Shown here: positions 23,186-23,458 of the stretch, in pieces
Layout of the letters: the number at the start of each line of letters is the position of its first letter
How positions within the stretch are numbered: position 1 is the stretch's first letter
From: Eledone cirrhosa
Taxonomy: Eukaryota
Assembly: GCA_964016885.1 (NCBI GenBank)
Contig: OZ024740.1
Coordinates: 370,822,001-370,886,000 of the forward strand
Length of the DNA stretch: 64,000 bases
Direction: 5' to 3'
Program-made: the position numbers and the translations under genes
Notes under the pieces: model-generated
What the model saw: only the letters and a program-made list of their open reading frames with translations
The model's database searches: none
What the model was told of the DNA's origin: nothing

Positions 23186-23458
23186 TTAGTGTGGGTTAAG
23201 ATTGGTGTCTTTGTTTTTATCGATACCGGTTGCGATGAGACATTTGTCGTAATATACTTGATCACAAAAGCAACAAAATTCTATTGCTTCTTTGTCATAC
23301 AAGGAACCACATTCACCACATACCCAGGCTTTTCTCAGTATGAGTGTATCGTCCATTTTACACGGTGTACATGGAACATTTGCTGCAGAACACAGTTTGG
23401 TCGGATGAATTATAACTAGCAGTGCTAGTGCTAGTGTAATAGTTGTGGTAATTCCCAT
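23186..23458 (-). CDS. Secreted cysteine-rich peptide precursor (90 aa), candidate CHH/ITP-fold neurohormone or toxin-like peptide
   Basis: ATG in strong context (CATAAAATGG). Hydrophobic signal peptide with likely cleavage at CSA|AN. Mature part has 8 Cys: C-x2-C-x13-C-x2-C-x11-CC-x-C-x7-C. Non-repetitive sequence with an upstream splice acceptor and downstream AATAAA. Confidence 0.8.
   Translation of the reverse strand: MGITTTITLALALLVIIHPTKLCSAANVPCTPCKMDDTLILRKAWVCGECGSLYDKEAIEFCCFCDQVYYDKCLIATGIDKNKDTNLNPH

Follow-up and report, generated by a model that had tools for sequence, protein, structure and literature searches.

What is a small, cysteine-rich gene, set in a 64,000-nucleotide stretch (the window) of microsatellite- and retroelement-rich animal DNA from the 3.0-Gb genome of Eledone cirrhosa, likely to do? 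A first-pass annotation, made from the letters alone, had taken the gene (C1:370,845,189-370,845,458) to encode a secreted eight-cysteine peptide with an affinity to the CHH/ITP hormones, and to be the only convincing host coding sequence (CDS) of the window. Our analysis indicates that the gene likely represents a second branch of the CHH family that has been overlooked: the encoded 65-residue peptide, which is likely secreted, belongs to a mollusc-wide eight-cysteine family, and the gene likely goes back to an ancient local duplication that it shares with the spiralian four-cysteine CHH gene, located 148 kb away. That we are dealing with an eight-cysteine CHH-type branch, paralogous to the four-cysteine CHH and acting as a neuroendocrine hormone, is the explanation that we consider fairly probable; the supporting evidence and the competing explanations are given in the following.

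The open reading frame (ORF) runs uninterrupted for 90 codons from ATG to stop (see Table 1) and contains the mature sequence as quoted in the first-pass annotation. The precursor starts with a hydrophobic segment (hydropathy maximum of 3.6 at residues 9-17), and the signal would, judged by the alignment with the octopod orthologues, in which Cys23 is not conserved, be cleaved after Ala25. The predicted mature peptide (65 aa, ~7.33 kDa) is acidic (isoelectric point, pI, of 4.8) and has its eight cysteines at spacings 2,13,2,11,0,1,7; the earlier reading of x13, x2, x11, x2, x7 is right for Cys33, 47, 50, 62, 65 and 73. The window peptide and its octopod orthologues lack an internal dibasic site and an amidation signal, and removal of the signal should therefore free the mature peptide whole. 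Several eight-cysteine relatives terminate in K, RK, RR or GK. A crude filter for a hydrophobic start and an even cysteine count (≥6) was passed by five of the 681 ATG-initiated ORFs (60-130 aa) in 464 kb around the gene, and the other four were judged by eye to be low-complexity or microsatellite frames. For the two octopod orthologues the annotated start lies six codons further upstream, where the window reads CTG (23459-23476, minus strand); the residues YIHK that follow this codon are still conserved. In one sequencing run (X1) a 674-nt contig spans positions 22942-23615 with zero differences while the flanking unique sequence is uncovered, unlike in runs X2-X4. This contig resembles a transcript; the contigs carry no strand or end information, the four runs belong to one study, and the observation was not counted as evidence.

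A protein search recovered two matches from two candidates, one in Octopus bimaculoides (73%) and one in Argonauta hians (71%, a hypothetical protein), both at E~1e-37 and with all eight cysteines kept, which together with the intact ORF and the hydrophobic start marks the ORF as a genuine, conserved gene for a likely secreted peptide. A profile of the three octopod sequences gave 15 matches at E≤0.001 among 1.84 billion representatives, ten of them with the cysteine frame; five long repeat proteins that lack it (P0004, P0008, P0009, P0010 and P0012) were dropped. A second profile round retrieved 13 proteins among 751 candidates and a third round one more, so that overall 17 distinct clusters with the frame were found, of which only three members can be named: O. 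bimaculoides, A. hians and the bivalve Dreissena polymorpha. The frame C-x2-C-x13/16-C-x2-C-x10/11-CC-x-C-x7-C occurred in every one of the 14 family members that were tested, among them the window's own, the eight cysteines and one Glu were invariant across the aligned family, and a hydrophobic leader preceded the cysteine frame in the aligned relatives. A scaphopod sequence with the same frame occurs in the unannotated secretome list of De Oliveira et al. 2019 (PMC6425005); its identifier was not found in the other supplement files that are accessible for that paper. Judged by these sequences, the family spans at least cephalopods, bivalves and scaphopods. The orthologue check proposed in the first-pass annotation thus yielded octopod orthologues as well as a wider molluscan family, and supports both the molluscan origin of the DNA and the notion of an unnamed family.

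Within the genome the only match to the window gene was the gene itself, and two distant members used as queries gave only this locus as a convincing hit; 'one copy' here means one close copy, as these searches did not recover the four-cysteine paralogue. The mature region is 72-75% identical among the three octopod sequences and is better conserved than the signal: 47-49 of 65 versus 16-17 of 24 positions are identical between octopods, 34/63 versus 2/25 for a more distant member and 24/53 versus 5/25 for Dreissena, where it should be considered that leaders align poorly at such distance. A precursor from ENA records (P0006, P0019 and P0020) carries two tandem eight-cysteine units behind one signal peptide, with no dibasic site in between. 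It groups with several single-unit relatives (P0011, P0038 and P0065), which suggests a local expansion in some lineage, and the arrangement recalls the oyster eclosion hormone precursor with its two ligands.

The first-pass annotation had described CHH/ITP peptides as usually ecdysozoan, a view that is out of date: the accessible text of Koch et al. 2023 (PMC10501145) reports a first spiralian member, with four cysteines and two exons that flank a phase-2 intron, that is neuronal in Aplysia and squid, and a passage in a 2026 review has it that lophotrochozoan homologues 'usually have four cysteines'. A short motif of this published peptide has one match in the 3.0 Gb (C1:370,996,126, 151 kb from the window gene; a control pattern gave none). 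The match belongs to an intact two-exon orthologue, CHH DREP (C1:370,993,101-370,996,239, plus strand; L048:402-502 and L002:1458-1614), in which exon 1 ends at AG/GT, exon 2 follows CAG and opens with the final base of the codon that is split, and the phase-2 intron measures ~2.9 kb; exon 2 is 100% identical to an O. vulgaris protein. The two genes stand head to head with their start codons 147.6 kb apart, a proximity that by simple arithmetic has a chance of ~1e-4 in 3 Gb. Among the frames of at least 150 aa between them only retroelement or low-complexity ORFs were recognised, a size limit at which short exons could be missed. A C2H2 zinc-finger ORF of 389 codons (C1:371,004,204-371,005,370, minus strand), 8 kb beyond the DREP gene, is a possible synteny marker.

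The relation between both genes is also found at the level of sequence. A profile of the eight-cysteine family, with no four-cysteine sequence inside, ranks the DREP exon second of the 14,920 ORFs in the 464 kb (E=1e-5, the next being 0.49), and apart from the window gene no further ORF passed the threshold. Its score of 31.2 bits exceeds every one of 2000 full shuffles (maximum 16.5) and of 2000 cysteine-fixed shuffles (maximum 13.9), and hhalign of the family versus the four-cysteine peptide gave 95.5% over 40 columns. In the alignment the CxxCG-x2-Y(G) core, the third and fourth cysteine, the following Asp and the terminal Ala coincide, and in both precursors (KOF87272 for O. bimaculoides DREP) the signal peptide is directly followed by the mature peptide. 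On the basis of linkage and profile match we consider it very likely that the window gene and the gene of the spiralian CHH peptide are paralogues. The window gene is separate from DREP, whose true orthologue is present at its own locus, and differs from it in having eight cysteines, with an extra N-terminal CxxC and a CC-x-C, a last loop that is two residues shorter and no phase-2 intron, at ~31% identity. The presence of an intronless CDS next to a paralogue that has its intron suggests that the gene was duplicated locally and then lost the intron, rather than being a dispersed, retroposed copy.

In CHH peptides the disulfides pair 1-5, 2-4 and 3-6. Two alignments set Cys47, Cys50, Cys63 and Cys73 of the window peptide on the four cysteines of the published peptide, which alters the cysteine mapping of the first-pass annotation in two respects: Cys63, and not Cys62, takes the conserved third position, and the added cysteines are Cys30, 33, 62 and 65. 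Cys47-Cys63 and Cys50-Cys73 would then be the two bridges shared with the four-cysteine peptide, for which the Koch preprint gives I-III and II-IV. The N-terminal CxxC (Cys30/33) would pair with Cys62/65 and clamp the N-terminal arm onto helix 2, so that one of these bridges may stand in place of the Cys1-Cys5 bridge of arthropod CHH and the other would provide a fourth disulfide.

The mature peptide is predicted to adopt a three-helix arrangement of the CHH/ITP type. The AlphaFold2 model (17 sequences; pLDDT 76, pTM 0.61) is all helical, with helices at mature residues 12-29, 32-40 and 42-52 and a low-confidence tail, of which 12-13 out of 14 residues are nevertheless identical to those in the octopod orthologues. 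Among 350,542 chains, Foldseek found six at E≤10, and the top four, k-Ssm1a, Ssm6a, SSD609 (rmsd, root-mean-square deviation, of 1.1 Å over 38 columns) and kuruma prawn MIH, all belong to the CHH superfamily. A search of 48,161 chains with VIA-align put Ssm6a (Z4.5, rmsd 2.5, 45 aligned) and k-Ssm1a (Z4.3, 3.2, 47) at ranks 1 and 2 and MIH at rank 3 (Z3.9, rmsd 4.9, 58 aligned, mature residues 2-62), followed by CHH-L as fifth and Ta1a as ninth; the first unrelated chain scored Z2.8. For the linked four-cysteine peptide a control model likewise shows three helices, and the same two chains head its list (Z5.4 and 5.0, an unrelated chain reaching 4.7). ESM Atlas provided one match at 0.75 for the window peptide and none that was usable for the four-cysteine paralogue.

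Various observations weigh against this assignment. The Foldseek matches to the superfamily have E-values of 4.8-6.1 (none ≤0.001), so the structure check put CHH relatives first at scores that are low in absolute terms; the VIA-align Z-scores stay below 5 and thus under the level that the tool itself calls reliable for helical proteins; the best structural matches are centipede toxins; and the control was folded with the eight-cysteine alignment and is not independent. Singly these low scores would mean little, and the weight lies on the finding that the same superfamily heads both lists. Further, no Pfam (PF01147 included) or PDB sequence match of the window peptide to CHH was found, these searches giving only non-significant CxxC zinc-finger matches. 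The published four-cysteine peptide likewise has no PF01147 match, and the Pfam miss is therefore uninformative; PF01147 searched against the genome gave three matches, each of which falls below the cut-off and contains stops, and the family profile did not recognise them. Pairwise BLASTP with the four-cysteine exon gave no match, and homology is, as far as sequence goes, visible at the profile level only. The window CDS lacks the phase-2 intron that is cited as a mark of the CHH family. Finally, only two of 15 branches in the tree are well supported, the sequences being too short to root the two subfamilies or to order events.

Compared to the ecdysozoan CHH/MIH/ITP peptides (PF01147; MIH 1J0T, CHH-L 5XS1) the window peptide is of similar size, its helical, disulfide-stapled model aligns to MIH, and its CxxC-x2-LY motif resembles the ecdysozoan CEDCYNLY. 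It differs in having eight cysteines at shorter spacings (2,13-16,2,10-11,0,1,7 in the family) and in lacking a PF01147 match, a precursor-related peptide, an amidation signal and, in the model, a C-terminal helix. Six cysteines have been called the invariant CHH signature (PMC7560641), a definition from which the accepted spiralian member, with four, also departs. Going by its sequence, then, the window peptide is in neither the six- nor the four-cysteine family as defined and is best described as an eight-cysteine variant of the superfamily.

With respect to function, the first-pass annotation had offered neurohormone, pheromone and salivary toxin. The first option is favoured, and the peptide probably acts as a neuroendocrine hormone and not as a venom peptide, because one copy was found, the family occurs in a bivalve and the mature region is better conserved than the signal; copy number, bivalve presence and conservation pattern make the other two less likely. 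In Drosophila ITP has been reported to act via a membrane guanylyl cyclase, in Bombyx via G protein-coupled receptors (PMC13311285), and CHH to raise cyclic GMP (cGMP) via a membrane cyclase (PMC7560641). By analogy to this receptor signalling in arthropods our best guess for the window peptide is that it would influence the balance of ions, water or metabolism in a cGMP-linked manner, through a membrane guanylyl cyclase or a G protein-coupled receptor; this is the weakest step of the proposed mechanism. A more specific and distinctly tentative version is that the eight-cysteine branch, and not the four-cysteine peptide, keeps the equivalent of the Cys1-Cys5 bridge and represents the ITP/CHH counterpart, as ligand of an orphan receptor guanylyl cyclase. 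Molluscs would then have an ancient linked hormone pair that acts on salt, water or sugar balance, and the eight-cysteine branch would be the closer structural and functional counterpart in Spiralia.

The best surviving alternative, which we nevertheless hold to be improbable, is that a CHH-superfamily member was recruited as an exocrine product, at least in octopods: a salivary or venom peptide that mimics the CHH of crustacean prey, or a pheromone. Octopods eat crustaceans, a fourth disulfide would add stability, and the closest structures are helical toxins derived from arthropod neuropeptides (Ssm6a, k-Ssm1a, SSD609 and Ta1a), with which the model shares a compact three-helix core at 16-27% identity; such recruitment is on record for spiders, centipedes, wasps and cone snails (PMC13311285). 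The neuronal four-cysteine peptide, however, also matches the centipede toxins first, and the conserved signal with hypervariable mature region that is typical of toxins is not seen in the eight-cysteine family, which has one conserved copy in this genome and occurs in a non-venomous, filter-feeding bivalve and in a scaphopod.

Similarly doubtful, and to our judgement slightly more so, is the reading that a small secreted protein rich in cysteines (immune or antimicrobial, shell, mantle or gamete) has no relation to CHH and came to resemble it by convergence on CxxC helices. The low absolute fold scores, the BLASTP result and the combination of eight cysteines with the lack of an intron, unlike CHH, would all fit such a protein. 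The profile match that survives cysteine-fixed shuffling and the linkage within 150 kb speak against convergence, and most antimicrobial peptides are not acidic, as this one is. A zinc-binding domain of an intracellular protein (C1/phorbol-ester, PHD or zinc ribbon) is very improbable: it draws on the label that UniRef gives to the O. bimaculoides orthologue ('Phorbol-ester/DAG-type domain-containing protein') and on weak PHD, rubredoxin and eL43 matches (E 0.02-0.1), against which stand the hydrophobic leader in aligned members, the all-helical model, the lack of a Pfam C1 or PHD match and the lack of an invariant His (the sole candidate sits in the leader), given that C1 zinc fingers have two conserved His among their zinc ligands and no signal peptide.

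The intronless eight-cysteine sister subfamily appears to be new. Full-text searches found no eight-cysteine spiralian CHH-type peptide (their coverage excludes the Sepia neuropeptidome and the FASTA sequences of Koch et al.) and no paper with any of six CC-x-C motifs. Motif searches of the accessible neuropeptide supplements for oyster (PMC8398477), Reishia (PMC10036341) and scallop (PMC5996578) came back empty, where sequences given only in figures escape, and neither CHH nor ITP is mentioned in the main text of Thiel et al. 2021 (PMC8557429). Clionin and the molluscan eclosion-hormone-like peptides are also secreted cysteine-rich mollusc neuropeptides, and eclosion hormone has been described as loosely related to CHH/ITP (PMC8398477). 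Clionin was rejected by eye on two sequences from the Reishia supplement, which have a different cysteine frame and no CC-x-C; the CCCGS, FYFY, GSWN and abalone MAP peptides do not fit, judged by their descriptions or peptides. Extensive as molluscan neuropeptide catalogues are, the databases leave this conserved family without a name or wrongly label it a C1 domain. With it the CHH repertoire known from Spiralia would double; the family bears on the evolution of the four-, six- and eight-cysteine versions of the fold and of the ancestral intron, and it offers a concrete, single-copy ligand candidate that is easy to express, with which mollusc receptor guanylyl cyclases could be deorphanised and the hormonal control of osmotic and metabolic balance tested in cephalopods and farmed bivalves.

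Table 1. Gene features and repeats located in the window
Feature	Position	Strand	Basis
90-aa precursor CDS of eight-cysteine CHH-type peptide	23186-23458	-	ORF and orthologues
Predicted signal peptide, residues 1-25	23384-23458	-	hydropathy and alignment
Predicted mature peptide, 65 aa, eight Cys	23189-23383	-	composition, model, alignment
Candidate polyadenylation hexamers (ATTAAA 22954-22949, AATAAA 22927-22922)	22922-22954	-	motif match only, AT-rich DNA
SINE-like short repeat	~23780-23965
Tandemly duplicated non-coding segment	20754-21509	+	near-identical ORF translations at 20754 and 21231
Non-LTR retrotransposon copies	35900-41700	-	PF03372, PF00078
Non-LTR retrotransposon copies	53000-64000	-	PF03372, PF00078
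Fragment of a different non-LTR element	46383-47555	+	zf-RVT, PF13966

Elsewhere in the window the long ORFs are frames of non-LTR (long terminal repeat) retroelements or translations of microsatellites. The gene is in that sense the sole convincing host CDS, as the first-pass annotation had it, with the provision that short exons of other genes are possible. The larger retroelement regions consist of stacked, partly frameshifted copies that encode an endonuclease and a reverse transcriptase with an upstream zinc-knuckle ORF1, and frames related to the separate fragment recur in the flanking 464 kb. The repeat resembling short interspersed nuclear elements (SINEs) lies ~320 bp upstream of the start codon and is of very high copy number, with a depth in the contig data that runs into the millions. 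The tandemly duplicated segment has a unit of ~480 bp.
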